Assembly: GCA_964360815.1 (NCBI GenBank)
Contig: CAYHYA010000002.1
Location: forward strand, 1,371 to 65,370
Reading direction: 5' to 3'
DNA: 64,000 nucleotides
Source: an uncultured Candidatus Saccharibacteria bacterium
GTDB lineage: Bacteria; Patescibacteriota; Minisyncoccia; Phycocordibacterales; JACOZG01
The position numbers and the translations under genes were made by a program. Shown here one piece after another: positions 3,284 to 60,493 of this stretch (positions within the stretch are counted from its first letter, which is position 1; the number at the start of each line of letters is the position of its first letter). Under the pieces are notes generated by a model. That model saw only the letters and a program-made list of their open reading frames with translations, did no database searches and had not been told where the DNA came from.

Positions 3284-3285
3284 AT

Positions 3286-3618: not shown

Positions 3619-3664
3619 TGTCGCACAATATATCTTTTGCGACAATGACGGCATTTGGTTTTGA

Positions 3665-4114: not shown

Positions 4115-4125
4115 AAAACCAAAAA

Positions 4126-4151: not shown

Positions 4152-4354
4152 GTCAAAATTAGTATTAATCAAGCGGACCGAATCAACTGCGACTACCCTA
4201 TCCAGTCCTAGTTCTAGGATAGCATACCGGCGATTCTTTGTCCAGCGGCGAAATAATTACCCGATGAACCTGCAATCCGCATTGTAGACTCAATAAGGAG
4301 GAGGAAGCTTAACGACCGTTCGCCAGGCTTCCTCCGCGAGGGAATTAGAAGTAT

Positions 4355-4906: not shown

Positions 4907-5192
4907 TTTTTATCTCCTTTTCAATGTTCAAGACTTTGTTTACAAAACCAAACCTCTCCCTATGGTAGCATATTCAATATAAAAAGTCAAGCTTTACCAG
5001 GATTTTAACCAAACGAGAATTTGCTCAAGCCAGATGGTAACTCTATCAATTACCCCGGCGAAGATTTGCCTAACATCAATCTGAAGATAAGAAAAAATCG
5101 CGACTACCACAATGATTGTTAAAATTAACTTAATAAATCCAGCTGATTTCTGTTGCATGTTACAGCTGATTATATTACAAAACCGTTTTTAT

Positions 5193-9942: not shown

Positions 9943-9950
9943 GAAGTTGG

Positions 9951-19311: not shown

Positions 19312-19326
19312 AGGAGTTATTATAGC

Positions 19327-20658: not shown

Positions 20659-20805
20659 GATATAATCAAGTCGTGGACAAAAAATTAATTGTTGTCGAAA
20701 CCCTGTTGGTTATTCTGGCAGTTTTATCATTGTCCATAACTTTTTACAAAACAGTTATTCTGAGGGATTATCAGATTCTTGAAATACCGGAGTGATCATG
20801 ATTGA

Positions 20806-21213
20806 TTAATTGGTATCATTGTATTTTGTGCCTCTCTCAATGAAACACATCTCAATTTCTTTGGCTGAAAAATAATTTTGAATAAAATCTTTTAAATTTG
20901 TGGACGAGAAGTAGCGACAAGAATAAATATCGATTGAAATAAAATTCTTCAGACTTATTGTGTGTATCTGGACACCACTCTCTATGAGCGGTATCCAGCC
21001 GCTTAATCCTGCCTTATCCGGATATATGCTGGCGTCACTTTTAAATATGAATGGGGGGGATTGTTTTTTCATTTTTAACTCAATTACCATATCCTCAAGA
21101 AATTTATAGTTTAAATTTAAATCATCACAAACCCCACTCCTACAAGCATATAGATCAACGGCCAAAAGATAACCAAAAGGTTTTATTTCCGATTCTTTAG
21201 GAGTTTGTTCCAT
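20806..21213 (-). CDS. Pyruvoyl-dependent decarboxylase, class I S-adenosylmethionine decarboxylase (SpeH)-like
   Basis: GYLLAVDLYAC (compare GRHLVAEFYEC) and LSGWIPLIESGVQIHT (compare VSGVVVISESHLTIHTWPE) align to SpeH including the E-S self-cleavage site; 135 aa. Confidence 0.55.
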   Translation of the reverse strand: MEQTPKESEIKPFGYLLAVDLYACRSGVCDDLNLNYKFLEDMVIELKMKKQSPPFIFKSDASIYPDKAGLSGWIPLIESGVQIHTISLKNFISIDIYSCRYFSSTNLKDFIQNYFSAKEIEMCFIERGTKYNDTN

Positions 21214-21252
21214 GATGTTTTAAATATAGCACAAGTATTTAAATAAATCAAT

Positions 21253-22161
21253 TTATCCCAACCAGTAACCACCCAGGACGACCAGGCCGATACCGACTAG
21301 TTTCTGAGTGATTATTTTGGGAGTGATAATTTCCTGACTGATCCGTGGGAAAAAGAGTGTTAGGCCCAATCCGATGATAAAAACAAAAAATGGTTGAAGG
21401 GAATTAGCCAAGAGAACCAAGGCTAGCGGGGCTAACAAACTGGCATATTGTATGATTCCGTCAGCGACAATAGTGATAGTTTCATTTAAAGAATTTAGGC
21501 CGAGGATTTTTGGACCGGAATTTTTTAGAACGTCAAAAAATTGTCGACGATAGTTAGTGATAAAAAGCAGAAATAATCCACCCAAAATTAGCTTACCAAT
21601 CAAAGACCAGAAAACCGACACCCAAAAACCTTCTGTTTGGGCAACTAATTTAAAAACAACACCACTTACAGCATAACCCAGAGAAGCTAGAAGCATCAAC
21701 CAAACTACCTCTTTTTTAAAACGTGGTCGAGGACCAACCAAATCGAAAGATAAAATCAAGGCCCCACACAAAATGATTAGTGAGGCATAAATTTGATGCT
21801 TGGTTAATTGTTCATTCAGCAAGAAATAACCTAGGATATAACCGAAAATCGGGACGGTCTGATAAAACGGGACGACAAAGGTCGCTTCATCTTTTTGGAT
21901 GGAGTAAAAATAACAAAGTAGACTCATGACGACGATCGCGCCACTGAAGGAAAGCAACAATCCCTGACCCAGGGAAACAGACAACAGTGTTGGCTGGATA
22001 AGCCAAACCACCGGCAAGGCCACAACGGCAAAAACTGAAGAAAAAATAATCAGCGATCCGGCCTGATTATCGTGTAGGTGTTTAGAGATTAGATATTTGT
22101 CGATGTGGTTGGTCGTGGCATACAAGAGTGGGCTTAAAAAAACGACGAACAATTTGATCAT
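21253..22161 (-). CDS. EamA/DMT-superfamily transporter (10 TM)
   Basis: 302 aa, two tandem 5-TM halves with typical EamA hydropathy. Confidence 0.6.
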   Translation of the reverse strand: MIKLFVVFLSPLLYATTNHIDKYLISKHLHDNQAGSLIIFSSVFAVVALPVVWLIQPTLLSVSLGQGLLLSFSGAIVVMSLLCYFYSIQKDEATFVVPFYQTVPIFGYILGYFLLNEQLTKHQIYASLIILCGALILSFDLVGPRPRFKKEVVWLMLLASLGYAVSGVVFKLVAQTEGFWVSVFWSLIGKLILGGLFLLFITNYRRQFFDVLKNSGPKILGLNSLNETITIVADGIIQYASLLAPLALVLLANSLQPFFVFIIGLGLTLFFPRISQEIITPKIITQKLVGIGLVVLGGYWLG

Positions 22162-35069: not shown

Positions 35070-36125
35070 TTATAAAATCACTCCCCCACCAAGACAAGTT
35101 TCGCCATCATAAATAACGCCCGATTGGCCGGGCGCGACGATTTGCCCGGACTTAAAAACGACTTTTATTTGATTCGTCCCCGTTGATTCTAGTTGGCATG
35201 GGATGACCGGCGCGCGATAACGTATCCGCGCTTGATAGGTTTGATTAAAATTTGGCGGCTGACCGGCTAACCAGTTTACTTGGGTTAAAACGAGCTCACT
35301 TTTACCCAGTTCTTCGGATCGTTTCGCTGGGGCGATAGTTAAAGTGTTGCGTTCGTGGTCTTTGGCCACAACATACTGCGGTGAATCGGTGTGGCTTGGG
35401 CGAGTTAACTTAAAACCATGACGTTCGCCAATCGTGTAGAAGTGACTGCCGTCGTGTTCGCCGACCACTTCTCCGGTCTCGTTTAAAACTACACCATTAA
35501 TCTGGGGCAAGTGTTGACGAAGAAAATCTTTGAAATCAATCGGTCCCACAAAACACAAACCCTGGCTATCTGGCTTGCTCGCATTGGGCAACCCGAACCG
35601 TTTGGCCAGTTGCCGCACTTCCGATTTTTGATAATCACCAATTGGAAAAAGGCAGCGATCCAAAACAGCGGGGGTGAGCGTCCAGAGAAAATAACTCTGA
35701 TCTTTGTCTTGGTCTTTGGCCACCAGCAGAGTTTGGCCGCGGCGACGAACGTAGTGGCCGGTGGCCACGAAATCAGCTCCGGTACTGATGGCTCGGCGGA
35801 AAAACTCGCCAAATTTAATTTGCTGATTACACATGACATCCGGATTCGGCGTCCGACCCAAACGATACTCGTTAATTAAATAATCCAAAACCGTTCGGCG
35901 GTACGCCTCCGACAAATCATAAGTCAACAACGGGCAGCCAAGTTTCGCCGCCACGCGGATGGCCTCCCGCCGCTCTTCCCGCCAAGCACAATTTTCCAAG
36001 CCGCCCAAACCGAGATCGGAAATTTTAATGAACCCACCGATCACTTCATACCCCGCCTTCTTCAATAGAGCGGCCGCCACGGCCGAATCAACCCCGCCCG
36101 ACAAGCCAACAAAAACCTTTTTCAT
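35070..36125 (-). CDS. mnmA: tRNA-specific 2-thiouridylase MnmA
   Basis: PP-loop VGLSGGVDSAV, RTPNPDVMCNQQIKF catalytic Cys region, C-terminal beta-barrel; 351 aa. Confidence 0.88.
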   Translation of the reverse strand: MKKVFVGLSGGVDSAVAAALLKKAGYEVIGGFIKISDLGLGGLENCAWREERREAIRVAAKLGCPLLTYDLSEAYRRTVLDYLINEYRLGRTPNPDVMCNQQIKFGEFFRRAISTGADFVATGHYVRRRGQTLLVAKDQDKDQSYFLWTLTPAVLDRCLFPIGDYQKSEVRQLAKRFGLPNASKPDSQGLCFVGPIDFKDFLRQHLPQINGVVLNETGEVVGEHDGSHFYTIGERHGFKLTRPSHTDSPQYVVAKDHERNTLTIAPAKRSEELGKSELVLTQVNWLAGQPPNFNQTYQARIRYRAPVIPCQLESTGTNQIKVVFKSGQIVAPGQSGVIYDGETCLGGGVIL

Positions 36126-36129
36126 ATAT

Positions 36130-38457
36130 TTATTGCCTCACAGCGCTGTATAAATCTCTCTGAAAATCAAAGAAAACCTCTCTAATGGTGTCGACTTCAC
36201 CGAGTGCGCTCACTGCATCAGCAATGGCGTGATACTTCAAATTCAAAAGAACAGGTAGCTTTTCCTCATCCAACTCCTCAACTCCTTTCTCCTCGTACTT
36301 CGCCAAAACGAAATCCAAAAACTCTTTCTGCTTGTCATTCAGCCCTTCAAATATCTTTCCTTTTGCCTGCTCCACACGCTCTACTCTTGAAATGGTCGGC
36401 CTCAAGAATGAAACATAATTCAAAACATCAAACAAATCGCTCTGTTCTGCGTCAATCATCTTCTGTAGCATCTCCAACTCGTCCTTGCCATATCCAATCA
36501 CGGCAATTTTTTCGAGGAACACTTTTCTCGTCACGGGATCAGACCATATCTTTCGCAACTCCTCCTCACTCTTAAAGAACTCAGGCATTGCTCCAAACAT
36601 GTTGTCCATAAACTCCTGCACTGATACGGGCTTGCCATCAGCACTCCAAAAAGACGTAGAGATCATGTGCTGAATCTCACGCTCCTTCCCATCACAAAGC
36701 TTGATCTTGAGCTTCCTCTTTGGCTCATCAGGTGTCTCTGGTGGAGGGTCTCCACCGGTTGTACCAGATGGATCTTTTGGCCCTGTAGGGGGTGTCTCTG
36801 TTGTCTCGTCTATGGGGTCGCCATCCCATTCAGGGTCAGCAAAGTGGTGATAAGCATCTACAAAGTCATAGATAGTGAAGTATTCTTTACCATCAAAAAG
36901 TCGTGTGCCACGTCCGATAATCTGCTTGAACTCGATCATCGAATTCACGGGACGCATCAGCACGATATTGCGTACATTCCTCGCGTCAACGCCGGTAGAG
37001 AGCTTCTGTGATGTAGTCAAAACAGTTGGGATAGTTTTTTCATTATCCTGAAACTCACGCAAATATTGTTCCCCTCGAGCACCATCATTGGCCGTCACTC
37101 GAGCGCAGTAGTTGGGCTCTTTGCTTATCTTGTATTGGTTGACCAAATCCCGCACTGCGAGCGCATGGTCTTGTGTCGCACAGAAAATAATAGTTTTCTC
37201 GTTTTGATTGATCTCGTCCATCACCACACGCACACGTTTTGCTTCACGCTCTTTAATAACAATTATTTTATTGAAGTCTGCTTCCTCATATATCTTGCCC
37301 TCCTCAACCTCTCCCTCGATAATCTGGTCGTCAGAAGTATAAATATAATCATCAAGAGTCGTCTTCACCCGTCTGATCTTAAATGGCGTAAGAAATCCAT
37401 CGTTTACACCCTCCTTAAGTGAGTAGACATAAACAGGTTCACCGAAATACTTGTAGGTGTCTACGTTATCTTTTCGCTTTGGAGTAGCCGTGAGACCGAG
37501 TTGCACAGCAGGAGAAAAGTATTCCAAAATCCCTCGCCAGTTGCCCTCATCATTCGCTCCACCACGATGACATTCGTCGATAACAACGAAATCAAAAAAG
37601 TCTGGTGGGTATTCTCCGAAATACGGTGTTCCATCCGGGCCACTCATGAAGGTCTGGAATATAGTAAAGAAAATACTTCCACCCATTGGCACGCCTCCTT
37701 TCTTTCGTATATCAAGCGGATTTATCCGCACTCTGGCATCATTCGGGAAGATCGAGAAATCGTTACCAAAAGCTTGATCAGCGAGAATGTTTCTATCGGC
37801 CAAGAAAAGAATGCGTGGTCTCCTTGTGCCATCTCGCTTGAGATTCCATCGTGCTTGAAATAGTTTCCATGCAATCTGCGCCGCCACAGCGGTCTTGCCG
37901 GTGCCTGTTGCCATAGTAATCAATATCCGTGACTTTTCTTCGGCAATGGCATCCAGTGCGTTATTGATTGCTAACTCTTGGTAGTAACGCATACTTTTAC
38001 CCCCCTCTGTAGGAATACTCGCAAACTTTTCTTTCCATTCGTTTTGACCTGCCTGTCCGGTAGGCAGGTCTGAATAGGTCTTATTCCACAACTCGTCAGG
38101 TGTAGGGAATTTATCTATCGGTCCCTCCTGTCCGGATTTCATTGAGATCTGATAAATTTCTTTGCCATTGGTGGAGTAGGTGTAGTTGATACGAAGCTTT
38201 TCAGCATACGACTTGGCCTGTACTACGCCTTCAGTTGCCGGTAACTCCGCCTGCTTTGCTTCAATGACAGCGATCTTGCGGTTCTTATAGACGAGAACGT
38301 AGTCAGCAATTTCCGGCTTGCTTCGTTTACCACCCACCTGAATTTTTCCATCTGTTATGCGAAACTCACGAAGGACTCGTGATCCCTCTACGTCGCCCCA
38401 TCCGCTCGCTTTGAGCATGGGATCAACATATTCCGCGCGTGTTTCTGATTCGTTCAT
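36130..38457 (-). CDS. hsdR: Type I restriction enzyme R subunit (HsdR)
   Basis: N-terminal MNESETRAEYVDPMLKASGWG (HSDR_N nuclease domain), SF2 helicase motifs (TGTGKT, DECHRG), C-terminal domain; 775 aa. Confidence 0.88.
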   Translation of the reverse strand: MNESETRAEYVDPMLKASGWGDVEGSRVLREFRITDGKIQVGGKRSKPEIADYVLVYKNRKIAVIEAKQAELPATEGVVQAKSYAEKLRINYTYSTNGKEIYQISMKSGQEGPIDKFPTPDELWNKTYSDLPTGQAGQNEWKEKFASIPTEGGKSMRYYQELAINNALDAIAEEKSRILITMATGTGKTAVAAQIAWKLFQARWNLKRDGTRRPRILFLADRNILADQAFGNDFSIFPNDARVRINPLDIRKKGGVPMGGSIFFTIFQTFMSGPDGTPYFGEYPPDFFDFVVIDECHRGGANDEGNWRGILEYFSPAVQLGLTATPKRKDNVDTYKYFGEPVYVYSLKEGVNDGFLTPFKIRRVKTTLDDYIYTSDDQIIEGEVEEGKIYEEADFNKIIVIKEREAKRVRVVMDEINQNEKTIIFCATQDHALAVRDLVNQYKISKEPNYCARVTANDGARGEQYLREFQDNEKTIPTVLTTSQKLSTGVDARNVRNIVLMRPVNSMIEFKQIIGRGTRLFDGKEYFTIYDFVDAYHHFADPEWDGDPIDETTETPPTGPKDPSGTTGGDPPPETPDEPKRKLKIKLCDGKEREIQHMISTSFWSADGKPVSVQEFMDNMFGAMPEFFKSEEELRKIWSDPVTRKVFLEKIAVIGYGKDELEMLQKMIDAEQSDLFDVLNYVSFLRPTISRVERVEQAKGKIFEGLNDKQKEFLDFVLAKYEEKGVEELDEEKLPVLLNLKYHAIADAVSALGEVDTIREVFFDFQRDLYSAVRQ

Positions 38458-38462
38458 AATAA

Positions 38463-39446
38463 TTATTTTGAAATTAAATTCAAAATGAGCTTTATTATTT
38501 TTCCTTTGTGTTCAGGATTGCTTTCAGCGACCATTATTGTAAGTGCGGTTAAAGCGGACGGAGTAAGTTTATTAACATTTAAAATATTTGCTTCTCTTAA
38601 AAACCACACGAATGCGAAAGCCCCGCTTCTTTTATTACCATCAATAAATGGATGATTTTTGACCATAAAATATAAGAGATAAGCCGCTTTTTCTTCGGCT
38701 GTCGGATAAAGTTCCTTGCCACCAAATGTCTGCATCACATTACCAATAATCCCAGAGATATTCCCTGTATTTCTTTCTATGCCGAAAATATCTGTTGCTT
38801 CTGATTTTTCTAAAAGATTTTGTTTTAATTGAATAAGATTTTTAGTAATTCTTTCCATCGTCAATTCAACTTTTTTCTTTGTCAGTTTTCCTTTCGGCAA
38901 AAGCTCTTTGTCATACGCATCAAGTGAAAGCCATGTGTCAGCAAAAAGTGATACGAGTTCAACGGCGTCAGACACATTCACCGCCGACCCCGAGGGAAGA
39001 AGTTTCTTTATGTCGTCAACCACGCCCAAGAACTGCGTGTAATTTTTTGCAATGCGTTTACGATTTATAGTGAAGCCCTTTACGATATGTTCCCGAAGCG
39101 TTTTAGTAGCCCACTGGCGAAACAGAGTAGCGGTCTTACTGTTTACTCTATATCCAACCGAAAGGATCATATCCAGGTTATAGTGCTTAATTTCACGCTC
39201 AATTTTGCGTTTTCCCTCATTTTGAACTATCCGGAAATTCCGGATAGTTGCATTTTCTGAAAGTTCTCCCGTTTTAAAAATGTTTTGGATGTGTTCGTTT
39301 ATTGTCCTTACATCAACACTAAAGGCTGTGGCTATCTGCGCTTGAGTCGCCCATACTGTCTCACGTGAAGTATCTCCACGAAGCTCGATGGCTCCATTTT
39401 TTGCCTGATAGATAACAATACTATTTTGTTCTTGCTTTTTTCCCAC
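38463..39446 (-). CDS. RhuM-domain / Fic-DOC family protein embedded in the type I RM operon
   Basis: N-terminal RhuM-like region. C-terminal HPFIDGNKRSGAFAF is the Fic motif HPFx[DE]GN[GK]R. Confidence 0.7.
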   Translation of the reverse strand: MGKKQEQNSIVIYQAKNGAIELRGDTSRETVWATQAQIATAFSVDVRTINEHIQNIFKTGELSENATIRNFRIVQNEGKRKIEREIKHYNLDMILSVGYRVNSKTATLFRQWATKTLREHIVKGFTINRKRIAKNYTQFLGVVDDIKKLLPSGSAVNVSDAVELVSLFADTWLSLDAYDKELLPKGKLTKKKVELTMERITKNLIQLKQNLLEKSEATDIFGIERNTGNISGIIGNVMQTFGGKELYPTAEEKAAYLLYFMVKNHPFIDGNKRSGAFAFVWFLREANILNVNKLTPSALTALTIMVAESNPEHKGKIIKLILNLISK

Positions 39447-39464
39447 AAAATTATTTATACCACA

Positions 39465-39995
39465 TTACAGCTCACCCGTAAATGCTTTGCTCAAGATCGA
39501 CTTCTTAAGTTCTTCCAAATCCGCCAGCTTCTGCTCGTATATTTCTTCTAGTTTTTTTGTTTCTGTTGAAAGGGCATCCAGCTTTTTCACAATCCGCTTT
39601 TGTTCGGATAGAATCGGAATATCGACCTCAATCGAATAGACCTCATTTCTATTCAATCCAGGCTTTACCCCTTTTGCTAATCTAGGTAGCTCCAGTGTTA
39701 TTAATAAGTCGTATAGAAATTTTAAATCGTATTTCCTTTCATCAAAGGTTACAAAATACGTGACATCAAGAGGCCAGAATTTTTCTTCCGTCAAATTTAA
39801 TTCGCCAGCGGAACCTTTACGACCAACTATTATGCTTGGCTTATTATAAAAATAGTCATTTGATCTTGTTTTCTCTCCATTGGCGCCATAGACAGGATAT
39901 TTTCCGCCCATGATTCGTTTTGATTTTGGTAATGGTTTCCCGTATTCCAACTTCAGAACATCACCAAGTTTTTTTGTTTGCCACTCAGTTTTCAT
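39465..39995 (-). CDS. hsdS: Type I restriction-modification specificity subunit, half-size (single target-recognition domain)
   Basis: MKTEWQTKKLGDVLKLEYGKPLPK typical HsdS TRD start, followed by a conserved coiled-coil region; about 176 aa. ORF-track start (40085) overlaps the OLD-like gene, so the internal ATG at 39995 was chosen. Confidence 0.7.
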   Translation of the reverse strand: MKTEWQTKKLGDVLKLEYGKPLPKSKRIMGGKYPVYGANGEKTRSNDYFYNKPSIIVGRKGSAGELNLTEEKFWPLDVTYFVTFDERKYDLKFLYDLLITLELPRLAKGVKPGLNRNEVYSIEVDIPILSEQKRIVKKLDALSTETKKLEEIYEQKLADLEELKKSILSKAFTGEL

Positions 39996-41781
39996 TGTTT
40001 TGTACCTCGTCGTTACTCTCATCGGCACAAAAATCTTCCAAAGTTTTAAATATTGGTTTAAAATTTTCGAAGGCTGATGGTCCAATTTTTATCGCTGCAT
40101 TTATTAACAGGTCTGTATCGCCTTTGGGGCAGATTTTCATTCCTCCTCCAGGAGTATTTTTTTCTTCAAAAAATTGTTCGAGACTGGTGACTCCATAAAA
40201 GAGGTGCTCCATCTCTAGTCTTGATTCACCCCCAAAATGATCTCCGGTCGCAGGGTTGATTACTTGCGCTTTTATTTTTGAATTATTTGATAATGGCAAT
40301 AATAATGCATAAAAATTACACTTCTTTTTTTTGAGAGTCAAACAGGTACCTATAGTATTTAACTTTTTTGTATAGTCATGATTAGTCAAACCATTCCATC
40401 TTTGAAAACCCTCTCCATCAAAATCAAATAATCCAAGAACGAATTGCTTTTCAAAAATCTCTGCATTTTCTAGTGCATAAGACACTCCTTGTGCATTGTT
40501 TTTCGCCTTTATTACGTAAGGATTAGATATACTTGGAAAAAGTAGCTTCCACGCTTCTTTTAGTACTCTTTCATCAGTTGGACCTTCAACGAACACAATC
40601 GGAGAATTTTCTAATTTTTTTAGATCTTCCAACTCCTGTGTTTGCTCATCTAGTTTTTTTATACTCAATGAGTAGTTTTTTTGAACCTCAAGAAATGATC
40701 CGTAGTTATAACCAAACACTTTTTCAAGATTGTTTGATTCGCTTATTTTATTAAAAATCGTATTCCCGGGTTTATCTTGATTTGAAATAAAAATAGAGTA
40801 GGCCTCGGGATTGTTTTGAGGGAATATGAAAGATGGTGAATGCGTAGAAAGAAAAATTTGTGCAGCTTTAGAATATTCGACAAATTTTACAAATAAATTA
40901 TCCGCTCTTAATGCTTCAAGCGCGTTCTCTGGCTCATCAATTCCCCAAATCCAATGATCGTCTTTTGCTTTCCTCGCCAACCAACCCAAAACTACTGGCA
41001 CAAAAAGACTTTTTATACCCTCGCCACGAGACGTGAATTTAATCTTATAGTCGTCTCTACTGCCACGAGTAATTGTCTCGGGCGTATCCTCAAACTGACT
41101 GTTAACTTCAAGACTTGACCAAAATGATTCCAAAGAAATGGGCAGAGTAACAGATGTATCCACTCCAGTAATATCCTGAAAATCCTTTGAAAAATCTTTT
41201 GTGGTCTTATCGATATTGGCATCGAGCTCGTCCTTTGCAGTAGTACTTAAAAACAACCCTTTGTTTCTGGCAGATAATTTCAAAATATATGAAAAAACCT
41301 CAGTACTCTTAAAAGCTGGAATATAAACAAATTTGATTGATTTCAGAAAAACAGAAAAAGATCTTTTTATTCCTTGGGAGGCTGTTCCTATATAATCGGG
41401 CTCTGTTTGTTCGTAGGTCTCAGTATAAGCCCACCACCTACGCTCAACCCATAAATCACCATTCTGATTGATGAGTTTTACAAGCTCATTCTTATTCCCC
41501 TTTATCTCATTTACATCAAAATAAATCTTGATGGATATAAACTGTCTTCCCTTTTTGCTCTCACGAGCTTTTACTTTCGATGACATTGAGAAATCATCAA
41601 AAAAGTTGAACTCCTCTAGAAACGAGGTCTGCCCATTGAAGAAGAGATTTAATGCTCTTAGGACATTTGATTTACCACTATCATTTTGGCCGCCGAATAT
41701 CACTATGTGATTCAGCTCTTCTATGGATTGATCAAAAATGGAGCGAAAATGCTTTATTTCAATTTTTTTAATTATTTTCAT
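39985..41781 (-). CDS. OLD-family (ABC-ATPase + Toprim) nuclease; alternatively GajA-like or fused PARIS AriA-AriB-like defense protein
   Basis: N-terminal Walker A FGGQNDSGKSNVLRAL of AAA_15/21 ABC ATPases. C-terminal Toprim signatures IVFVEGPTDERVL (invariant E) and LGLFDFDGEG (DxD). 598 aa, class 1 OLD size. ATGA start/stop overlap with hsdM. Confidence 0.55.
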   Translation of the reverse strand: MKIIKKIEIKHFRSIFDQSIEELNHIVIFGGQNDSGKSNVLRALNLFFNGQTSFLEEFNFFDDFSMSSKVKARESKKGRQFISIKIYFDVNEIKGNKNELVKLINQNGDLWVERRWWAYTETYEQTEPDYIGTASQGIKRSFSVFLKSIKFVYIPAFKSTEVFSYILKLSARNKGLFLSTTAKDELDANIDKTTKDFSKDFQDITGVDTSVTLPISLESFWSSLEVNSQFEDTPETITRGSRDDYKIKFTSRGEGIKSLFVPVVLGWLARKAKDDHWIWGIDEPENALEALRADNLFVKFVEYSKAAQIFLSTHSPSFIFPQNNPEAYSIFISNQDKPGNTIFNKISESNNLEKVFGYNYGSFLEVQKNYSLSIKKLDEQTQELEDLKKLENSPIVFVEGPTDERVLKEAWKLLFPSISNPYVIKAKNNAQGVSYALENAEIFEKQFVLGLFDFDGEGFQRWNGLTNHDYTKKLNTIGTCLTLKKKKCNFYALLLPLSNNSKIKAQVINPATGDHFGGESRLEMEHLFYGVTSLEQFFEEKNTPGGGMKICPKGDTDLLINAAIKIGPSAFENFKPIFKTLEDFCADESNDEVQNNEN

Positions 41782-43259
41782 AGCAATTTTTGAATACCAG
41801 TTAAACTGCTCTTGATTTCTGTATCAAGTTTTTGCATTTCGGAGATGATTTCTTCCGGTGTACGCAACGCAGTTTCATCCTTTTTGTTAGGATTCTTTAC
41901 TGATAAATCAAAAGTCTCTTGATCAACACTTGAGACATCAATACTCCATGAGTTATCACTCTCTGCTTTCGTCTTTTGTAGTTTTACGAATTCAGATAAG
42001 TCCGCCTCGTTCAGAGGATTACCTTTGCCTAGATTTCGACCAAGATTGAGCTGGTAGAACCACACCTTTTTTGTAGGTTTTCCTCCCGACGCTGCGGTCG
42101 GGACAGGTTTCTCAAAGAACAGCACCGCTGTCTTCACTCCTGCACCAGCAAACACTCCTCCAGGCAGATCGAGGACTGTGTGTAAATTACAACTCTCAAG
42201 AAGCAATTTGCGAAGACTTATCGAAGCATTGTCTGTGTTTGATAGAAATGTGTTCTTGATAACAATACCTGCTCTACCACCAGCCTTGAGAATCTTTATA
42301 AAGTGTTGAAGAAAAAGAAAAGCTGTCTCACCAGTCTTAATGGGAAAATTCTGCTGAATCTCTCGCCCTATGCCTGCTCCAAAAGGGGGGTTTGCCAAAA
42401 TTACGTTATAACGATCCTTTTCCTGAATGTCGTTGATGTTCTGTGCGAGCGTATCTGTGTGTCTGATGTTTGGCGCCTCAATACCATGTAGGATCATGTT
42501 CATTATGCCGATGATGTAGGCGAGGGATTTTATTTCCTTTCCGTAGAAAGTTTTATTCTGTAGTGTTGCCATTTGTGCCGATGACAGCTTGGCTTGATTT
42601 TGAGTAAGAAAATTATATGACTCCACTAAGAATCCTGCGGAGCCGCACGCGCCGTCATAGATCGTCTCGCCAATTGTCGGTGCTACCACTTTGACGATCG
42701 TTTTAATCAAAGGGCGTGGGGTGTAGTATTCGCCACCATTCCTGCCCGCATTTCCCATGTTCTTGATCTTGTTCTCATAGAGATGCGACAGCTCGTGCTT
42801 CTCCTCATACTTTCGGAAATGCATTGCGTCCACAACGTTCAGGATATCTCGAAGCTTGTAGCCACTGACTATTTTATTTTTTAGCTCGCTGAAGATCTCA
42901 CCGATTTTATATTCGATAGTGTTCGCATCCGCATCAGGATTCTTAAACTTCTTCAGATACGGAAATAACTTCTGATTCACGAAGTCATTCAGGTCGTCCT
43001 CAGTCATTGTTTTGTGGTGATCTATTTTTCCGTCTTTCCCTTTAGGGCACGCCCACGCATCCCAGCGGTATTGCGGATCAAGAATGTAATTGTATTTCTT
43101 GCCAGCAAGTTGAGCTTCAGTCTTCTTTATCTCATCCAAATCATCTAGATACTTCAAAAAAAGAATCCACGATGTCTGTTCTACATAATCTAGTTCCGTT
43201 GCTGAACCAGAATCTGTATGAAGAATGTTGTCTATATTTTTGAATGAGTTTTCAAACAT
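41778..43259 (-). CDS. hsdM: Type I restriction-modification N6-adenine DNA methyltransferase subunit (HsdM)
   Basis: HsdM N-terminal domain, AdoMet motif I (DGACGSAGFL), catalytic NPPFG motif IV; 493 aa. Confidence 0.88.
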   Translation of the reverse strand: MFENSFKNIDNILHTDSGSATELDYVEQTSWILFLKYLDDLDEIKKTEAQLAGKKYNYILDPQYRWDAWACPKGKDGKIDHHKTMTEDDLNDFVNQKLFPYLKKFKNPDADANTIEYKIGEIFSELKNKIVSGYKLRDILNVVDAMHFRKYEEKHELSHLYENKIKNMGNAGRNGGEYYTPRPLIKTIVKVVAPTIGETIYDGACGSAGFLVESYNFLTQNQAKLSSAQMATLQNKTFYGKEIKSLAYIIGIMNMILHGIEAPNIRHTDTLAQNINDIQEKDRYNVILANPPFGAGIGREIQQNFPIKTGETAFLFLQHFIKILKAGGRAGIVIKNTFLSNTDNASISLRKLLLESCNLHTVLDLPGGVFAGAGVKTAVLFFEKPVPTAASGGKPTKKVWFYQLNLGRNLGKGNPLNEADLSEFVKLQKTKAESDNSWSIDVSSVDQETFDLSVKNPNKKDETALRTPEEIISEMQKLDTEIKSSLTGIQKLL

Positions 43260-43302
43260 ATTAATTATCCACGACTTTCAGATTCCAATCTTCCAAACTC
43301 GA

Positions 43303-43331
43303 AGTATAGTGAGATTAACTCTTATTGTCAA
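43303..43331 (-). promoter_or_regulatory. Sigma70-type promoter for the hsdM operon (TTGACA-17-TATACT on minus strand)
   Basis: Seen in sequence: near-consensus hexamers with 17-nt spacer about 45 nt upstream of hsdM ATG. Confidence 0.55.
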
Positions 43332-52726: not shown

Positions 52727-54421
52727 TTAATTTGGGGTATTTGGGAGTATTTCTATAGAATTAATAACCTTGTCGGTATCCTGCCATCTCTCCAAAGTAT
52801 TTTGATAAAGCAATCCTTTTATTTCTGCTTTCTTTTCGTCGGGCATAGAGATTAGGAAATAATTAGAATCGTCAAAAAGTTTTTCTATTTTCAGGGTTTT
52901 TGAATTATTGATCGGGATAAAAACGGTTTCTTGGCCACAACCCTCGACTCCAGAGTAAAAAGTGACGCCAGCTTGAGATTTAAATTTTTCTTCATCAATT
53001 AGTGCGTCCTTTTCCATGGTCTTAATCGCTTCTCTTAAACCGGTGTCGAGATACTCTATGGAGAGATAGAAATCCGTTAATTCACCTAGTGGGATAACGG
53101 GTCCGGGGCCCTCCCCACAATATCTAGGGACAATGAGAGAAATAGAATGTTTTAGTTCTATTAATTTATCCGATTCTGTAATTGAAATTGCCGTAGATGG
53201 ATATGAAAATTTAATTCCAAGATTTTTGCTTTCATATGTTGGCCATGCCTGGGAATATATTAGTTCTCCTCCTTCATAATTTCCGTCACACTCCCATTTG
53301 GCAGTATACTTCTGCAATATTAATTGACGATCTATGAGTTTGTATACTCCAGTTGTCCAGCAATCTCCCAACCCCCGACCCTTCGTTGCAGACACAAAAA
53401 CATCTTTTACGGAATCATAAAACATTTCAACAACTCTATAGTTAAAAATTGACTCACCTTCTCTGTTTATTTCTTCGACGAGAAGAGGGGTATAAGTTTT
53501 TCCGTCATCTAATACGACCATGTAAGAGTATTGATAGGCGTGGGCCATACAGAACAAGATCAACACCTTGGTGCCATCGGGCATGATTTTCTCTGGTTTA
53601 ATCGCCTGAACAAATGATCGAAACGGTAATTCGTCAGGAATCCCCGTCATTTCATATGGATAACACTCTTCTTTGTACTGAGCCGCTAACGGTGCCCACC
53701 TCGGATCAGAAGCGGCCAAACTTAAATCTTCTTTAAAATTTTTTTCCTTTTCTTGTTGTTCCAATTGGTTTTCAGAAATTAAAGTATCGTCTATGAGTAT
53801 ATAATTGTGGTTAGATAGGTAATCTTTTTCTTTACGAGACATGGTGATAATTCCTTCTTTATATTCCACAAAATCAATGTCTGACCAGTTATCTTCATTG
53901 TTAATAAATTTAATTGGCACCAGTAACCCCCCTACTTCACGTAGAATTTGATAGGAACTAAAACCTTTTTCATTCTTCGTTCGAATTAACGCTTCGCTGA
54001 CCCCATCTCCGCTTATATCTTTTTGAAAAATATTTGTTTCAAAAGCTTCGGTACTGTTTTGAACCTTCTGTGCCGACTTGATCACAATGACAGGTTCGGG
54101 ATGTAAGCCAATCGAAAAAAATTGATAGATACTTCTTTCTTTTGGTTTGTTTTCAACGACTAGAAAGAATGGGGTATTGCCGATCTTTATTTCTTTCGCA
54201 TAGAAGTCGTACTCGAACGATTCATGATTTCCGAAACTATAATGATAATTACCAGGGAGGGTTTTTATTCTAAAATAAGGATAGATGGCTCTCAGGATTG
54301 GTGGGGCAGAATATTTTAATATCGCTTCCCTGTAACCAATGACCACAACGACCACAACCAAAACCGTCCCTAAAATTATAATTAAACGCTTCTTGTATTT
54401 TGAATTCTGACTTCTCAACAT
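52727..54421 (-). CDS. Membrane-anchored FG-GAP-like repeat protein, paralog 1 (long form)
   Basis: N-terminal TM (LIIILGTVLVVVVVVIGY) and DISGDGVSEALI Ca-binding-type DxxxDGxxE repeat. Shares family with four downstream paralogs. Start set at internal ATG after the upstream gene stop. Confidence 0.55.
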   Translation of the reverse strand: MLRSQNSKYKKRLIIILGTVLVVVVVVIGYREAILKYSAPPILRAIYPYFRIKTLPGNYHYSFGNHESFEYDFYAKEIKIGNTPFFLVVENKPKERSIYQFFSIGLHPEPVIVIKSAQKVQNSTEAFETNIFQKDISGDGVSEALIRTKNEKGFSSYQILREVGGLLVPIKFINNEDNWSDIDFVEYKEGIITMSRKEKDYLSNHNYILIDDTLISENQLEQQEKEKNFKEDLSLAASDPRWAPLAAQYKEECYPYEMTGIPDELPFRSFVQAIKPEKIMPDGTKVLILFCMAHAYQYSYMVVLDDGKTYTPLLVEEINREGESIFNYRVVEMFYDSVKDVFVSATKGRGLGDCWTTGVYKLIDRQLILQKYTAKWECDGNYEGGELIYSQAWPTYESKNLGIKFSYPSTAISITESDKLIELKHSISLIVPRYCGEGPGPVIPLGELTDFYLSIEYLDTGLREAIKTMEKDALIDEEKFKSQAGVTFYSGVEGCGQETVFIPINNSKTLKIEKLFDDSNYFLISMPDEKKAEIKGLLYQNTLERWQDTDKVINSIEILPNTPN

Positions 54422-54431
54422 CTTCTTATTT

Positions 54432-55316
54432 TTATTTGAACAACTCCTTAAATTCTGGTGATGTTTCTGCCACCTCTTTCCAGAGGTAGTATTCGACACC
54501 GCTCCATTTATAGATTTGAGTGTATCGCCCCTTACCCACCATGTCTGGAGAGGTTGGAATAAGACCGAGGTTTTCTAAAGCGGGATCAATGATTATGACT
54601 TCCAAGATTCCATCACCATCTTTATCTTGAAACAAATCAGGAAATTTATCATAGCGTTTCATTAAAAAATAAAATCTATTCCATGAAGTTACATCTGAAT
54701 CTGTGTGCTCAAAATTAAAATCTCTGGTTGAATCTTTTTTCTTACCGACAATCGGATTTAGCACTTTGTATGTTTTGATTTTTGGATCAAGAGATATTAT
54801 CCAAAACTCTTTATCGTTGTATTCTTCCTCTATGTTTCTATACAGAGCACCTCCCTCCGAATATATGACCAACTCTTTTAGTCCATCGTTGTTTATATCC
54901 CTGACCTCTTTTATAAGTTGTTCCGGCTTCCATAAAAAAGGAGAGTTTATTTCCCAATAGATATAGTACTGGTTATTGGTTAGGTGTTTTAACATAATAA
55001 TTCCGCCTTTTTCTCCATAATCATCGGCCTTATAAACTCCAATGGTTACTCTTGTAGGTGGATTATTGTCGTCCAAAAGATATGTTTGGTTCTTTTCATA
55101 AAAATCACGTTTGGTTTCGGTCATACTTTTTAAGAGACGGTATCTATTACTACGTTTCTCTGGTGGTATATTTGAAAGATCAACAATTCTATTAGTAAAA
55201 GTATTAACTTCGACCGGTGTCAGTGTCTTGTTGTTTATTTGGTATATAAATATCCCGACTATTATAATCAAAACTGTCGCTTGGGCTATTTCGTATATTA
55301 ATTTTTTATTTTTCAT
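54432..55316 (-). CDS. Membrane-anchored FG-GAP-like repeat protein, paralog 2 (carries conserved YYLWKEVAETSPEFKELFK tail)
   Basis: N-terminal TM. RDINNDGLKELVIY and DKDGDGILEVII repeats. 3'-terminal 57 nt near-identical to paralogs 4 and 5. Confidence 0.6.
   Translation of the reverse strand: MKNKKLIYEIAQATVLIIIVGIFIYQINNKTLTPVEVNTFTNRIVDLSNIPPEKRSNRYRLLKSMTETKRDFYEKNQTYLLDDNNPPTRVTIGVYKADDYGEKGGIIMLKHLTNNQYYIYWEINSPFLWKPEQLIKEVRDINNDGLKELVIYSEGGALYRNIEEEYNDKEFWIISLDPKIKTYKVLNPIVGKKKDSTRDFNFEHTDSDVTSWNRFYFLMKRYDKFPDLFQDKDGDGILEVIIIDPALENLGLIPTSPDMVGKGRYTQIYKWSGVEYYLWKEVAETSPEFKELFK
54439..54495. repeat. 57-nt conserved segment (3' end of FG-GAP paralog 2), copy 1 of 3
   Basis: aacaactccttaaattctggtgatgtttctgccacctctttccagaggtagtattcg; 3 variable positions among copies at 54439, 56418 and 59741. 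Confidence 0.8.
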
Positions 55317-55324
55317 TTTCGGTA

Positions 55325-55595
55325 TCACTGGTCCTGTTCATGATATGTCCCGCATACATTATTTGCATACTGAATCGTTGATGGAGCTCTGCCATTATAA
55401 TAACGAACAGCCCACCACAAACGATCTTTATCATTATCTAATAATTGAGTTACCCCTTGCCACAACAAAGTATTGTTATTATAGTCCTGTTTTAAAGCTT
55501 CGACCCAATTACTGCCGTAGGTGCTGATAAAATATTGGTTATTGTACGGTTCAACCTTAATAAAATTCCGATGAACGCATAGATTTTCTTGCTGT
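55325..55595 (-). pseudogene. Start-less remnant of a lysozyme-like (SLT/GH23-like) C-terminal cassette
   Basis: Open frame beginning immediately after the stop of paralog 3, with no start codon. Translation ...QYFISTYGSNW...RYYNGRAPSTIQYANNVCGTYH aligns with the ...SSYGLMQ...LLQYNRDPQYAIDVYKIY end of the orphan cassette at 57195..58166. Confidence 0.4.
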
Positions 55596-55610
55596 GTGAG
55601 CTATGCATGG

Positions 55611-56390
55611 TTATGGAGGATACAACACGTTGCCAACCGAATACTGATCTTCCCCTGTGGATGGAGTGAGGGAATCTTTTTGTTCTCTCCAAAGAAAATA
55701 TTTTGAACCATCCCATTTATAGGCCCGATAGACTTTCTTATTGATCACATCAAGCCGATTTTCTGCTAATCCAAGAAAAATGTTGTAGGGTTGAACAATT
55801 TCTGGAATACCGTCTTTGTCCACATCAAAAATTTTCGTCATGCTTTCCTCGCCACCAAAACCTACATAGTTGGATTCTTTTCCGTCTGGTCTTATGTGTA
55901 TGAGATATGGGGTAATCATATCAAAACCGTCACTATTCCATTTGTAGATATACAGGGTTTCGCCCTTGTCATTATCCCATAGAGCAAGGATCTCGTTTAC
56001 ACCATCACCAGTAAGATCAGACACGCCCACCTTTGATCTTGGGTCAGAAATATCTTCTGTGCTTTCCCATATAAGTTTTATTTTTTCAAATTCTTTTTCC
56101 TCAAAAACCAATATTCCTTGCTGGTGGTGGGTAATAATAAGATTCTTTGCCCCAGTTTTAGTTAAAGAAAATCTCTGGTAATCTTTCCCTTTCGTAGCAA
56201 TCACGTGGTCAATCCGATTTTGTCTGTCTATTGGGTAATATAGTTCAGGTTCTCCCACCACGGGGGTGAACATGGCCGTAGAGGTTGCTGTGTCTTGCAC
56301 GTCTGGTTTTCTTGAATCAAACAAAAAATATAGACCAGCACCCAAGAGAATTATTATTCCCCACGATACGGCTATTTTGATTTTTGACAT
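55611..56390 (-). CDS. Membrane-anchored FG-GAP-like repeat protein, paralog 3
   Basis: N-terminal TM. SDLTGDGVNEILAL and FDVDKDGIPEIVQ repeats. Diverged C-terminus KYFLWREQKDS... Confidence 0.55.
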   Translation of the reverse strand: MSKIKIAVSWGIIILLGAGLYFLFDSRKPDVQDTATSTAMFTPVVGEPELYYPIDRQNRIDHVIATKGKDYQRFSLTKTGAKNLIITHHQQGILVFEEKEFEKIKLIWESTEDISDPRSKVGVSDLTGDGVNEILALWDNDKGETLYIYKWNSDGFDMITPYLIHIRPDGKESNYVGFGGEESMTKIFDVDKDGIPEIVQPYNIFLGLAENRLDVINKKVYRAYKWDGSKYFLWREQKDSLTPSTGEDQYSVGNVLYPP

Positions 56391-56410
56391 GTTATTTTTT
56401 TACTCAATAA

Positions 56411-57211
56411 TCACCTAAACAACTCCTTAAATTCTGGTGATGTTTCTGCCACCTCTTTCCAGAGATAGTATTCGGAGCCGTTGAATTTGAAAACACTGGC
56501 GGACTGATGAATATCTTCGTAATCACCACTTTCATTTAGTGTAAGAACCTCTAAATTGCCATCATTTTCAAGATCAATGAATTTAACATCGGTGCCTGCC
56601 ATCCAACGATCGGATTCAGTCTCGGCCCCTGGATTTGGATTTATTAATTTAAATTCATCGTTATTCCATTGATAAATCCAGAATGTGGGAACAAGACGCA
56701 CTCCTTGCCACGCAATAAGCACGAGTTCATCAATTCCATCATTATTAATATCTTTGAATTCAGTGGTGCCCTTCATTGCTGAAAAATATTCTTTGCTTTC
56801 CCAAATAATTGAAAAGTGGTTATCCTTTTTTATAAAAACCAGTATGCCTCCTCTGTATGTTCCGCGTTCATCTTCGGGATGATTAGAATCTTGTCTCGAC
56901 TTATTTATGACCGTATCAGGACTATTCGGCATATAATAAACTGCGTACTTTTTTTCGCCATTTAATGTCGGGACTTTACTTGAAGAAAAAGCTGAATTAT
57001 ATTCAGAAAGGGGAACGGATTCTATGTAATTTAGCATATACTGTCTGGGGTGTTGCCAGTAGGACTTCTCGTCAAAACTGACCGACCAATGATTATTTGG
57101 AATTTCGGTTATCTCCTGTTTTACTTTAGTTAAGTAAAAAATCACCGCGATTATACAAAAAACAATAATAACAGCGGTCATACTTTTTCTCTTGTTAATC
57201 ATATATGCCAC
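56411..57211 (-). CDS. Membrane-anchored FG-GAP-like repeat protein, paralog 4 (conserved tail ...EYYLWKEVAETSPEFKELFR)
   Basis: N-terminal TM. FKDINNDGIDELVL and FIDLENDGNLEVLT repeats. Conserved 57-nt 3' end. Confidence 0.6.
   Translation of the reverse strand: MAYMINKRKSMTAVIIVFCIIAVIFYLTKVKQEITEIPNNHWSVSFDEKSYWQHPRQYMLNYIESVPLSEYNSAFSSSKVPTLNGEKKYAVYYMPNSPDTVINKSRQDSNHPEDERGTYRGGILVFIKKDNHFSIIWESKEYFSAMKGTTEFKDINNDGIDELVLIAWQGVRLVPTFWIYQWNNDEFKLINPNPGAETESDRWMAGTDVKFIDLENDGNLEVLTLNESGDYEDIHQSASVFKFNGSEYYLWKEVAETSPEFKELFR
56418..56474. repeat. 57-nt conserved segment, copy 2 (3' end of FG-GAP paralog 4)
   Basis: Near-identical to copies at 54439 and 59741, including synonymous positions. 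Confidence 0.8.
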
Positions 57212-58477
57212 TTAAATAAATTTTATAAACATCAATTGCATACTGCGGGTCACGATTGTACTGGAGGAGTGCCTCTTTTATTTTTTGTTCGTACGACCAG
57301 GCAGGATGTTGATTTTCAGCGACTCCATAGTAAAAGTTCAAGGTATGTACCCCCACTTTAATGTTTACGGATGGAATAAACAAATCTTCGACGGGTCTAG
57401 CCGGACTGGAGACGTCCTCGAAACCATTCCATCTAGCGGTCTCATAGAGTATTTGCATCAAACCATAACTAGAAGCCAGAATTAACTGGGCGGTATAGTT
57501 TAGATTGGGAGGTAAAGAGGTCCAATCGCGATTTGGGTTAGCCTTAACTATCTCTTGGGCGGTAGGATTAGAATTTGTGTTCGCAATATTGAGTTTAGGG
57601 AACGCATCTTCACGATGCCTCATAAAAATACTTGTGCTCATGTCCGACACTTGATCCCCATTTATAAAAGTTTCTCCTGGGACATTATGCCCTCCGAGTC
57701 GCCAGTGTTTTTCCGGAAACCCATGCAATCCACGCCAACCTTGCTCTTGTGGCAGCGTAGAATCAAGTTTTGAATACCAATTGTAATCAGTATGAATTTC
57801 ATATCTTATGGCTTTTGGTTTGAAATTACTCTCTTTTTTGATCACCGCCTTTATCAGGGCGGCGGGAATATCTTTTGTCGCGTTATCCATGATAATACCA
57901 TCAACATCATTGTTATTTCCCCTATCTCCCAGCGTGGTCTCTTCTATTCGCACCCCGACGCTAGCGTTCGTGCCGTAACCGGACCGAAGTAAGATGGGGC
58001 CGGTGACTTGGTCGAGCGGCGGGCGATCCGTTCTCACAATACCAGTTTCGTCCCACTCATGAATCGTGGTACCGGCGAGAGTGGAAGTATAGCGCGCGTG
58101 CCAATTTATAGATTGTCCGCGGATAAATGACTGATTTTTATTCGGCAAAATAATGTTGGCTATCAAATTCGGAAGAAGATGCTGCCGCCAAAAATTCTCC
58201 CAACCGTTCGGCCATTCTTCGACCGTATAGCCACCGTTCAGACCCTCACCAATAGCGTACGTCGCATCACCACCGGCAAAGTCAATGGCGAGATAAAATA
58301 AACCTTGCCAGTCGTTATAAGTGAGCGGCGCCGTCGGCGTGTAAATAATTTTACCGGCGGCGACGGCGTTATGGAAAGCGGTTTTGAGGGCTGATGAAAT
58401 AACCAGAGAATCGATCTCGCTATCATTCGCGGCGGTAATCTTTTTAGAATCGCCAAAAAGTTTTTCTATTCCGATTT
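57195..58477 (-). other. Promoter-less, start-less orphan C-terminal cassette: 503-bp segment identical to the large gene followed by an alternative lysozyme-like (SLT/GH23-like) C-terminal domain
   Basis: Frame is open from the TAA at about 58478 through 57195 with no ATG/GTG in the first about 110 codons. Residues ...KITAANDSEIDS...GTNASVGVRI are nucleotide-identical to 61309..61811. Downstream domain has IKAVIKKESNFKPKA (ES motif), SSYGLMQILYETA and YNRDPQY motifs. Confidence 0.6.
57944..58446. repeat. 503-bp direct repeat, copy B (identical to 61309..61811)
   Basis: Base-by-base comparison in the window. Identity starts at ...cgcaccccgacgctagcg and ends at ...cggcggtaatcttttta in both copies (offset 3365 bp). 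Confidence 0.85.
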
Positions 58478-59005
58478 AAATTTTTTGATCAAGTTTTCCT
58501 TTATGGCATATAGTTCATTACTTTTCTCTCTATCTTTCTCGGTATTATTGTCACAAAGTTCTTCATTAACTATCTGATTGTTGTTTCTGTAGGAAAAAGA
58601 GACAAAACTTGTGCAATTGGGATGGCTTATATCCCATATCTTCATTGCTATCTCATGTTCTGTTGTTATAGCAGAAAACGGCTTAATAGAGTATTCGAAG
58701 CTTAGTATAAATTCACTATTCACCATATCAAAAACATACTCATGTGATATGAGTGGTGGGTTAGGGTTAAAATCGTGAACAATTAAAAGACAAGTATTAA
58801 GTTTCGGACTATACCTGACAATTTTGTACTCCTTAGTGTTGGATAAACCTTTTTTATCATATAATTCATTGCACAAAATTGCCTGACGTATTAAATTGTT
58901 TTTTGGCAAGTAAAAAATAAAATAATAACTTAGGCCAATACCACTTAAGAAAATTCCCAGTACCATTAGAGAATAAACAAACTTTTTTATATTTAAATAA
59001 TTCAT
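58466..59005 (-). CDS. Hypothetical small membrane protein, very AT-rich
   Basis: 179 aa, N-terminal TM (LMVLGIFLSGIGLSYYFIFYL); about 30 % GC. Confidence 0.4.
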   Translation of the reverse strand: MNYLNIKKFVYSLMVLGIFLSGIGLSYYFIFYLPKNNLIRQAILCNELYDKKGLSNTKEYKIVRYSPKLNTCLLIVHDFNPNPPLISHEYVFDMVNSEFILSFEYSIKPFSAITTEHEIAMKIWDISHPNCTSFVSFSYRNNNQIVNEELCDNNTEKDREKSNELYAIKENLIKKFKSE

Positions 59006-59038
59006 GTTTAGGTTGGGTAATTAGTGAAAAACATGATC

Positions 59039-59710: not shown

Positions 59711-59733
59711 TTTGTTTTTAAAAAATAATTAAA

Positions 59734-60489: not shown

Positions 60490-60493
60490 ATGA

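Follow-up and report, generated by a model that had tools for sequence, protein, structure and literature searches.

Defence genes nested within type I restriction-modification (RM) operons have long been known, the gene for PrrC being one example, and rloA/rloB are similarly embedded in the type I RM locus of Campylobacter jejuni (PMC2928727). Type I loci with RhuM and Fic/DOC genes inserted between their core genes have also been documented (PMC9881135). Payne et al. (2024) systematised this "guilt by embedding", releasing the PDC models and validating HEC-04, an ABC-ATPase-Toprim fusion embedded in another defence system that was proven to be antiviral, with both domains required (10.1101/2024.01.29.577857). 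Here, a locus on the minus strand at positions 36130-43331 of a 64,000-nucleotide stretch of contig CAYHYA010000002.1 (the window, meaning the whole stretch analysed) was examined. The host, a groundwater bacterium of candidate-phyla-radiation type (CPR, ultra-small), is uncultured. A promoter-like site is followed in this order by hsdM, a gene for a 598-amino-acid (aa) ATPase-nuclease placed between hsdM and hsdS and termed X for both gene and protein, a half-size hsdS, a gene for a RhuM-Doc protein, and hsdR. The embedded genes lie on the same strand as their host operon, as do those of Payne et al., whose host systems are Hma, BREX, DISARM or type I RM. Since embedded genes of this kind have already been published (PrrC; Payne et al. 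2024), the layout is a known one and the locus is a good though fairly ordinary example of it. On balance, it is best read as a type IB RM operon that acquired two self-contained defence genes of abortive-infection type, probably served by one promoter.

All five open reading frames lie on the minus strand at the positions listed in Table 1, in the order that an initial annotation of the window had given, and the consensus promoter-like site that it had placed upstream of hsdM was also located. By its profile matches, the RM part is a complete type IB (EcoAI-family) operon, in which an HsdR above the curated cut-off is accompanied by HsdM and HsdS. HsdR matches NF046051 at 6.5e-247 and 821.7 bits (cut-off 550) over profile positions 1-768 of 768, and carries the Pfam domains ResIII, EcoEI_R_C and HSDR_N_2. 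HsdM matches the PADLOC model MTase_I over its full length (5.7e-157). HsdS comprises one target-recognition domain and one conserved region; its PADLOC Specificity_I match (3e-36) covers half of profiles of 360-460 positions, and the HsdS proteins of relatives with the same operon type measure 376-406 aa compared with 176 aa in the window. The half-size gene suggests a deletion derivative, the product of which would recognise a symmetric site as a homodimer. Such a homodimer would be active by analogy with engineered half-S systems (PMC3320862). The window HsdS aligns best (43-53%) to the C-terminal half of its relatives.

Table 1. Features of the hsd locus, in window coordinates.
Feature	Position	Strand	Basis
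Promoter-like site, TTGACA-17 nt-TATACT	43303..43331	-	11/12 consensus matches; 44 nt upstream of hsdM ATG
hsdM, type I methyltransferase subunit, 493 aa	41778..43259	-	Pfam N6_Mtase 9.4e-62, HsdM_N 6e-9
X, OLD-family-type protein, 598 aa	39985..41781	-	AAA_15, AAA_21 matches; ATPase, linker helix and Toprim
X, predicted ABC ATPase, ~residues 1-357	40711-41781	-	AAA_15 72.5 bits vs cut-off 32.1
X, predicted divergent Toprim nuclease domain, ~residues 390-598	39988-40614	-	Conserved acidic residues and family-level homology
hsdS, half-size specificity subunit, 176 aa	39465..39995	-	Methylase_S 8e-21, single domain
RhuM-Doc, 327 aa, N-terminal RhuM domain	38463..39446	-	Pfam Virulence_RhuM 1.2e-26
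Doc-type Fic domain, ~residues 200-327	38463-38849	-	Pfam Fic 1.8e-13; motif HPFIDGNKRSG
hsdR, type I restriction subunit, 775 aa	36130..38457	-	NCBIfam EcoAI/FtnUII NF046051

The genes of the operon are separated by no more than 18 nucleotides (nt) or overlap. The hsdM and X genes overlap by ATGA (41781-41778). The ATG of hsdS at 39995 gives the N-terminus MKTEWQTKKLGDV; this start fits the relatives of hsdS and is also used by an independent gene call in a second assembly (L002 4066-4596). The start of hsdS thereby overlaps the end of X, including its stop codon at 39987-39985, by 11 nt. In the initial annotation, X was described as overlapping hsdM by ATGA and ending 9 nt before hsdS. The former is real while the latter is wrong, and with an overlap in place of a gap the coupling is tighter than was stated. 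The junction between hsdS and rhuM-doc measures 18 nt and that between rhuM-doc and hsdR 5 nt. The promoter-like site sits within the 139-nt spacer between mltG and hsdM and is the best promoter match of the region, for a consensus that may not apply to this uncultured lineage. Promoter-like sites in the region number 14, compared with 15.0 (sd 3.5) in shuffled sequence, which is no excess. Transcription of all five genes probably starts at a single upstream promoter. Misassembly, which the initial annotation had named as a possible source of the arrangement, is rejected because identical junctions are present in two independent assemblies from replicate Hainich groundwater samples (0.1 um fraction) and the layout is repeated in related genomes. 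Of the replicate assemblies, both contain mltG-hsdM-X and one contains hsdS and the start of rhuM-doc.

As judged from its motifs and fold, X is a protein of OLD-family architecture, with an ABC ATPase of intact motifs followed by a C-terminal Toprim domain. Its AAA_15 match has an E-value of 6.6e-20. Walker A (GGQNDSGKS) begins at residue 30, RGEG at 252, Walker B (WIWGIDEPE) at 277 and STHS at 312. Conservation was assessed in an alignment of 34 full-length homologues, 26-83% identical to X. Residues G36, K37, S38, E283 and H314 of the ATPase are invariant in 34/34 homologues, a signature-like RG.G motif is present, and E283, P284 and E285 of the Walker B/D-loop are likewise invariant, while D282 is invariant in the close clade of 15 sequences. 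The AlphaFold (AF2) model has a predicted local distance difference test score of 82 over the full length, and of 93 for the C-terminal domain (CTD) modelled alone. The top PDB matches in Foldseek are retron Eco8 OLD (1.2e-17), GajA (7e-17) and the OLD protein of Thermus scotoductus (Ts OLD, 6p74; 1.3e-13), with alignments of 520-560 columns spanning both domains; ABC-type heads (SMC, Rad50, PtuA, GajA) dominate the matches overall. Ts OLD is also the best PDB match by sequence (6.5e-8). The metal-dependent nuclease and ATPase activities of X are putative. Among close relatives, the ATPase half is 67-91% identical and the Toprim half 38-70%. The presumed effector domain thus appears to evolve faster than the presumed sensor domain.

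Another reading is that X is a housekeeping repair ATPase of SMC/RecF/Rad50 type that merely lies beside RM genes, a paralogy of which the initial annotation had also warned. Weak N-terminal matches to SMC_N (29.4 bits, cut-off 40), RecF (27, cut-off 172) and the Rad50/SMC heads of the PDB speak for it. However, all of these matches are confined to the P-loop region and lie below the family cut-offs, and the C-terminus of X is a Toprim rather than coiled coils. Furthermore, the X family is distributed patchily from Patescibacteria to Archaeoglobus in variable neighbourhoods, and the GC content of X is foreign to the genome. A housekeeping role is effectively refuted.

Regarding the CTD, the initial annotation had made the Toprim call depend on conservation of E and DxD, and both are conserved: E399, D453, D455 and E525 are invariant in 34/34 homologues, G400 and D403 are conserved in at least 90%, and the motif series reads VEGxTD ... 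FDxD ... E. When the window CTD was scanned alone, no Toprim family of Pfam was matched, DUF3226 at 0.06 being the one match, and PADLOC returned only RT-Toprim_I-C at 0.013. The CTD model gave nothing significant in Foldseek (best E 0.05 in the PDB, 0.03 in BFVD), its weak top ranks being rich in Toprims, namely Bp/Xcc OLD, AriB, topoisomerases and DnaG. At family level, the CTD profile matches the Ec67/Eco2 Toprim with an hmmsearch E of 0.011 over the whole domain and with 94.6% in hhalign, and the catalytic residues E374, D378, D460 and D462 of Eco2 align to E399, D403, D453 and D455 of X. Against the CTD of P0101, which bears Pfam OLD-like_TOPRIM, hhalign reaches 99.8%. The CTD of the close clade is homologous to the distant members that bear the Eco2 link (100%, E 5e-44). 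Across 22 family CTDs, the recurrent sub-threshold Pfam matches are DUF3226, OLD-like_TOPRIM, Toprim and Toprim_2, and never DUF4435. The PADLOC retron I-C RT-Toprim models are matched by 13 of the 22 (best 4e-19), while AriAB, GajA, AbiLii and ATPase-Toprim_I-B are each matched by a single member. The CTD family comprises 2,185 representatives at 50% identity (E up to 1e-3), and most of the 150 listed are 550-680 aa long with the domain at the C-terminus.

Among characterised systems, the nearest to the Toprim family of X thus appears to be the Toprim of retron Eco2, a tRNA-cutting enzyme that nicks acceptor stems (PMC12916289). This affinity weakly favours RNA as the substrate of X, and gives a concrete prediction for it, namely tRNA. 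The two proteins are built differently. The Toprim of Eco2 (Ec67, type I-C) is fused to a reverse transcriptase (RT) and caged by multicopy single-stranded DNA, whereas that of X is fused to an ABC ATPase with no RT or non-coding RNA present; tRNA cleavage has been demonstrated for Eco2 and is predicted for X. X as a retron OLD (class 3) or retron I-C component is rejected, as the operon has no RT domain and no Rfam family was found in the whole 64 kb, in which no tRNA gene was found either.

Comparison with other known systems narrows the classification further. The initial annotation had labelled X as OLD-, Gabija- or PARIS-like and proposed a classification with hidden Markov models; the GajA and AriAB models match X only in part, and of the label only the OLD part stands, as regards architecture. 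GajA (class 2 OLD) has a helical insert in its Toprim and a UvrD/PcrA-like helicase, GajB, encoded next to it. X as the GajA of Gabija is rejected, since it is flanked by hsdM and hsdS, with no GajB helicase adjacent. Matches to GajA models cover no more than the first ~50-110 residues of X, and the one CTD that touches a GajA model does so at 0.064. With PARIS (class 4 OLD), X shares the pairing of an AAA_15/AAA_21-type ABC ATPase with a Toprim effector. In PADLOC, the N-terminus of X is matched best by AriA (8.4e-20), AriA also aligns to residues 271-342, and AriB gives a weak fold match to the CTD (E 0.078, probability 0.2). The PARIS detection rule requires an AAA_15/AAA_21 ATPase with DUF4435, separate or fused (PMC9122126), and X as PARIS is rejected because DUF4435 (PF14491) is missing from the window CTD (E<=10) and from 22/22 family CTDs (E<=5); the fused AriAB model aligns residues 4-104 only.

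PrrC/RloC and rloA-rloB resemble X as ABC-ATPase latent nucleases, or ATPase and Toprim-like pairs, within type I RM operons. X as PrrC/RloC is nevertheless rejected: the embedding is shared, but the CTD is a Toprim rather than an anticodon nuclease, and PrrC sits between hsdS and hsdR whereas X sits between hsdM and hsdS. No PrrC or RloC model is among the best 25 of the 87 PADLOC matches of X. X as AbiL/RloA-RloB is also rejected, for RloA and RloB are separate genes while the nuclease of X is fused, and AbiLii is matched by 1/22 CTDs (0.006); AbiLi matches the whole ATPase of X (9.3e-15, residues 3-319). HEC-04 is an ABC ATPase-Toprim fusion like X and is not among the PADLOC matches listed for X, nor is any HEC model among those of the 22 CTDs. 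Among the PADLOC v2 matches listed, no model spans the full length of X.

The layout of X is closest to that of class 1 OLD proteins (P2 Old, Ts OLD and the OLD of Vibrio cholerae), with which it shares a single polypeptide comprising an ABC ATPase with a helical insert and a C-terminal Toprim, an acidic metal-binding set, and the lack of a helicase or RT partner. In Vibrio cholerae, a class 1 OLD provides defence on its own (PMC12392090). Differences remain. The match to the PADLOC Old model is confined to the ATPase half of X (residues 2-348), the Toprim of the X clade is too divergent for Pfam OLD-like_TOPRIM and belongs to a family nearer to the retron I-C Toprims, and class 1 OLDs are described as solitary whereas X is embedded and coupled in an hsd operon, being nested in 8/13 close relatives. 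X is therefore placed, on profile and motif evidence, in a putative unnamed and divergent clade of the OLD superfamily.

The neighbourhoods of X in relatives bear on whether it depends on the RM system. Thirteen close loci with readable neighbourhoods were compared, with 44-83% identity and the window itself included. In seven of them, hsdS directly follows X (window, P0002, P0006, P0010, P0011, P0012 and P0013), usually with overlapping codons, and in P0009 it lies two genes downstream. Where visible, the upstream gene in the hsdS-linked loci is hsdM. The recurrence in related genomes that the initial annotation had suggested looking for was thus found for hsdM-X-hsdS, and the complete five-gene order is present in the 83%-related operon (P0002/L003, in a Magasanikiibacteriota genome) with a different Fic protein. 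The HsdM upstream of X is 72-88% identical to that of the window in four related loci and 33% identical in a Bdellovibrionales locus, L009. The latter (2220-11891) is an island with the order RhuM-Fic, RadC, hsdR, hsdM, X, hsdS and Mrr. Relative to the window, its two embedded genes are 62-64% identical (RhuM-Fic 64%) and the ATPase of its X 70%, compared with 33% for HsdM and HsdR.

By contrast, five of the 13 close relatives have no type I genes (P0004, P0005, P0008, P0015 and P0018). P0005 lies beside an N6_N4 methyltransferase and a ResIII gene (type III-like RM), P0008 beside an HpaII system (type II RM) with Vsr, P0015 beside a LexA-fused methyltransferase, and P0004 and P0018 beside unrelated genes. 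The wider X family was represented by 56 loci, 27-83% identical to X and all but five at 27-33%. Type I genes occur within two genes of X in only ~10/56 of these (~15-20%), and integrases, TIR and Mrr genes are also found. X is therefore probably autonomous, as far as these neighbourhoods indicate, and the tie to type I RM that the initial annotation had drawn from its position is not borne out. A metagenome scan with the single X protein found nothing; with the X alignment, the scan gave no new close relative, L095 and L096 repeating the contexts of L009 and L087 (the P0015 contig).

Under the favoured reading of an autonomous second-line defence, HsdM2 and two copies of the half-size HsdS, paired as a dimer that points to a symmetric target, would act with HsdR as the first line by restricting unmodified DNA. 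X would behave like other OLD-family proteins, its ABC ATPase sensing or gating and its Toprim acting as a two-metal nuclease that is unleashed during infection, with no need for the RM complex. RhuM-Doc would be a second effector, its Doc-type kinase domain blocking translation as P1 Doc does. Embedding would have these genes expressed and inherited together with the RM system, so that phages that get past restriction would meet a second layer.

A PrrC-like guard is the principal alternative. There, X would be coupled to HsdM/HsdS synthesis and held latent by the RM complex until an Ocr, Stp or ArdA-like protein disables the complex, upon which the X Toprim would cut tRNA or DNA and abort infection. 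The position of X between hsdM and hsdS, with start/stop overlaps in the window, P0002, P0010, P0011, P0012 and P0013, fits such a role. P0006 and P0009 are linked to hsdS as well, and the same slot is occupied in the type I backbone of L009. PrrC is itself a precedent, as an ABC-ATPase-type latent nuclease that is activated by Stp and found almost exclusively in type I RM loci; the Toprim relatives Eco2 and AriB cut tRNA; and Payne et al. propose that embedded ABC-ATPase systems work in this way (10.1101/2024.01.29.577857). A guard is harder to reconcile with full-length close relatives that lack type I genes (P0004, P0015, P0018), with those adjoining type II or type III-like RM (P0008, P0005), and with the small share of the wider family that adjoins type I genes. 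Nor does the identity of X track that of HsdM, being ~62% across HsdM backbones of both 79% and 33% identity. The PARIS model invoked in the initial annotation lends no help, because PARIS detects Ocr directly and needs no type I RM in the cell, and its authors rule out guarding of EcoKI (PMC9122126). A guard is considered possible but rather unlikely, and since X persists without type I genes, autonomous second-line defence is rated above it.

Several points weigh against the favoured reading. X keeps its position directly upstream of hsdS in those seven close relatives and across two unrelated hsd backbones more steadily than random cargo insertion predicts, which leaves room for a functional tie to the RM complex. 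No solved Toprim is matched directly and significantly by the CTD of the window clade, so that the assignment rests on conserved motifs and transitive homology; the close-clade profile alone reaches only 17% in hhalign against the Ec67 Toprim, and it is distant members of the family that carry the link to Eco2, which is therefore transitive. The promoter is a consensus match only, and an internal promoter may be present. Finally, the functions of X, the RhuM-Doc family and the operon are putative and the host is uncultured.

A bolder form of the guard joins these strands, in which the X clade would be an AriA/OLD-type ABC ATPase driving a retron-Eco2-type Toprim RNase, acting as a PrrC-like sentinel of the type I complex that is kept stoichiometric through coupling, held by HsdM2S, and freed by anti-restriction proteins to cut tRNA. 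This is regarded as unlikely. If true, it would represent a second, independently evolved guard of type I RM made from different parts. In either case, the hsdM-X-hsdS placement in two unrelated backbones offers a tractable test of co-inheritance versus PrrC-like monitoring of RM.

Regarding the second embedded gene, RhuM-Doc matches the PADLOC model PDC-S23 (PDLC04965) at 4.6e-112 over residues 6-326 and profile positions 3-324 of 327. It scores 43.2 bits against NCBIfam DOC_P1 (cut-off 38.65), and its Doc catalytic motif is intact. It is accordingly a full-length match to PDC-S23, a RhuM-Fic/Doc phage defence candidate family that is, with PDC-S05, one of the RhuM-type candidates of Payne et al. 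In the literature searched, no experiment testing RhuM-type proteins for a role in phage defence was found. P1 Doc blocks translation by phosphorylating EF-Tu. In the 83%-related operon, the slot between hsdS and hsdR holds a 360-aa Fic_N/Fic/SoFic_C gene in place of RhuM-Doc, which suggests cassette exchange at this slot.

The operon is a compositional mosaic. GC content at third codon positions is 27-37% in X, hsdS and rhuM-doc (38463-41781), compared with 45-48% in hsdM and hsdR and 52-53% in the flanking housekeeping genes, and by this contrast the three central genes look like exchangeable cassettes. The mosaic, together with the swapped cassettes, is also what would be expected if X and RhuM-Doc were toxin-like hitch-hikers that maintain a mobile RM island and have no direct antiviral role, and this idea gains from Doc being a classical addiction toxin and from the frequency of integrases at wider-family loci. 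However, no antitoxin-like partner adjoins X or RhuM-Doc, and when island boundaries were sought, no convincing direct or inverted repeats flanked the locus, nor did it contain an integrase or a transposase. Moreover, most genes beside the relatives of X belong to RM or defence (Mrr, TIR, HpaII, N6_N4 methyltransferase), as fits defence islands, and embedded genes of such type tested so far are mostly antiviral. Purely selfish cargo is thus held to be very unlikely. Read as an antiviral unit, the locus offers a clean natural case of layered immunity in one transcription unit, combining restriction with two putative abortive-infection effectors. Moreover, as the X family has no full-length PADLOC or Pfam Toprim model, adding X would close a small gap in defence-finding tools.

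A number of smaller observations concern the surroundings and more distant loci. Distant AAA_15 ATPases in L124 and L132-L136 are 33% identical to X in the ATPase half and do not detectably match the window CTD. They lie with hsdM and RhuM-family genes, except in L135, where no hsdM or RhuM match was found; hsdS is directly upstream of the ATPase in L133, L134 and L135. From these contexts, the pairing of RhuM with an ABC ATPase in type I loci recurs beyond the X family. In the Kaiserbacteria locus L010, two small open reading frames (168 and 227 aa; 1797-2983) lie between X and hsdS, the second having a weak match to a CdiA C-terminal tRNase (4.5e-4, below cut-off).

In the window, the stop codon of hsdR is 4 nt from the ATG of mnmA on the same strand (36125-36132), a housekeeping gene for a tRNA 2-thiouridylase, and no terminator-like site was found in the hsdR-mnmA interval. 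In L010, a 47-aa remnant of a RhuM N-terminus (7366-7503; 54%, E 5e-7) lies directly upstream of an mnmA that is 49% identical, so that an island of this kind seems to have settled in front of mnmA on two occasions. The tRNAs attacked by anticodon nucleases are ones whose wobble base is modified by MnmA; the location of the island beside mnmA is probably a coincidence. Elsewhere in the window, the low-GC stretches at 17605-22161 and 52727-60528 were checked and contain no defence families. They encode a histidine kinase, a GARS-like ATP-grasp protein, an EamA transporter, FG-GAP repeat proteins and an SLT transglycosylase.

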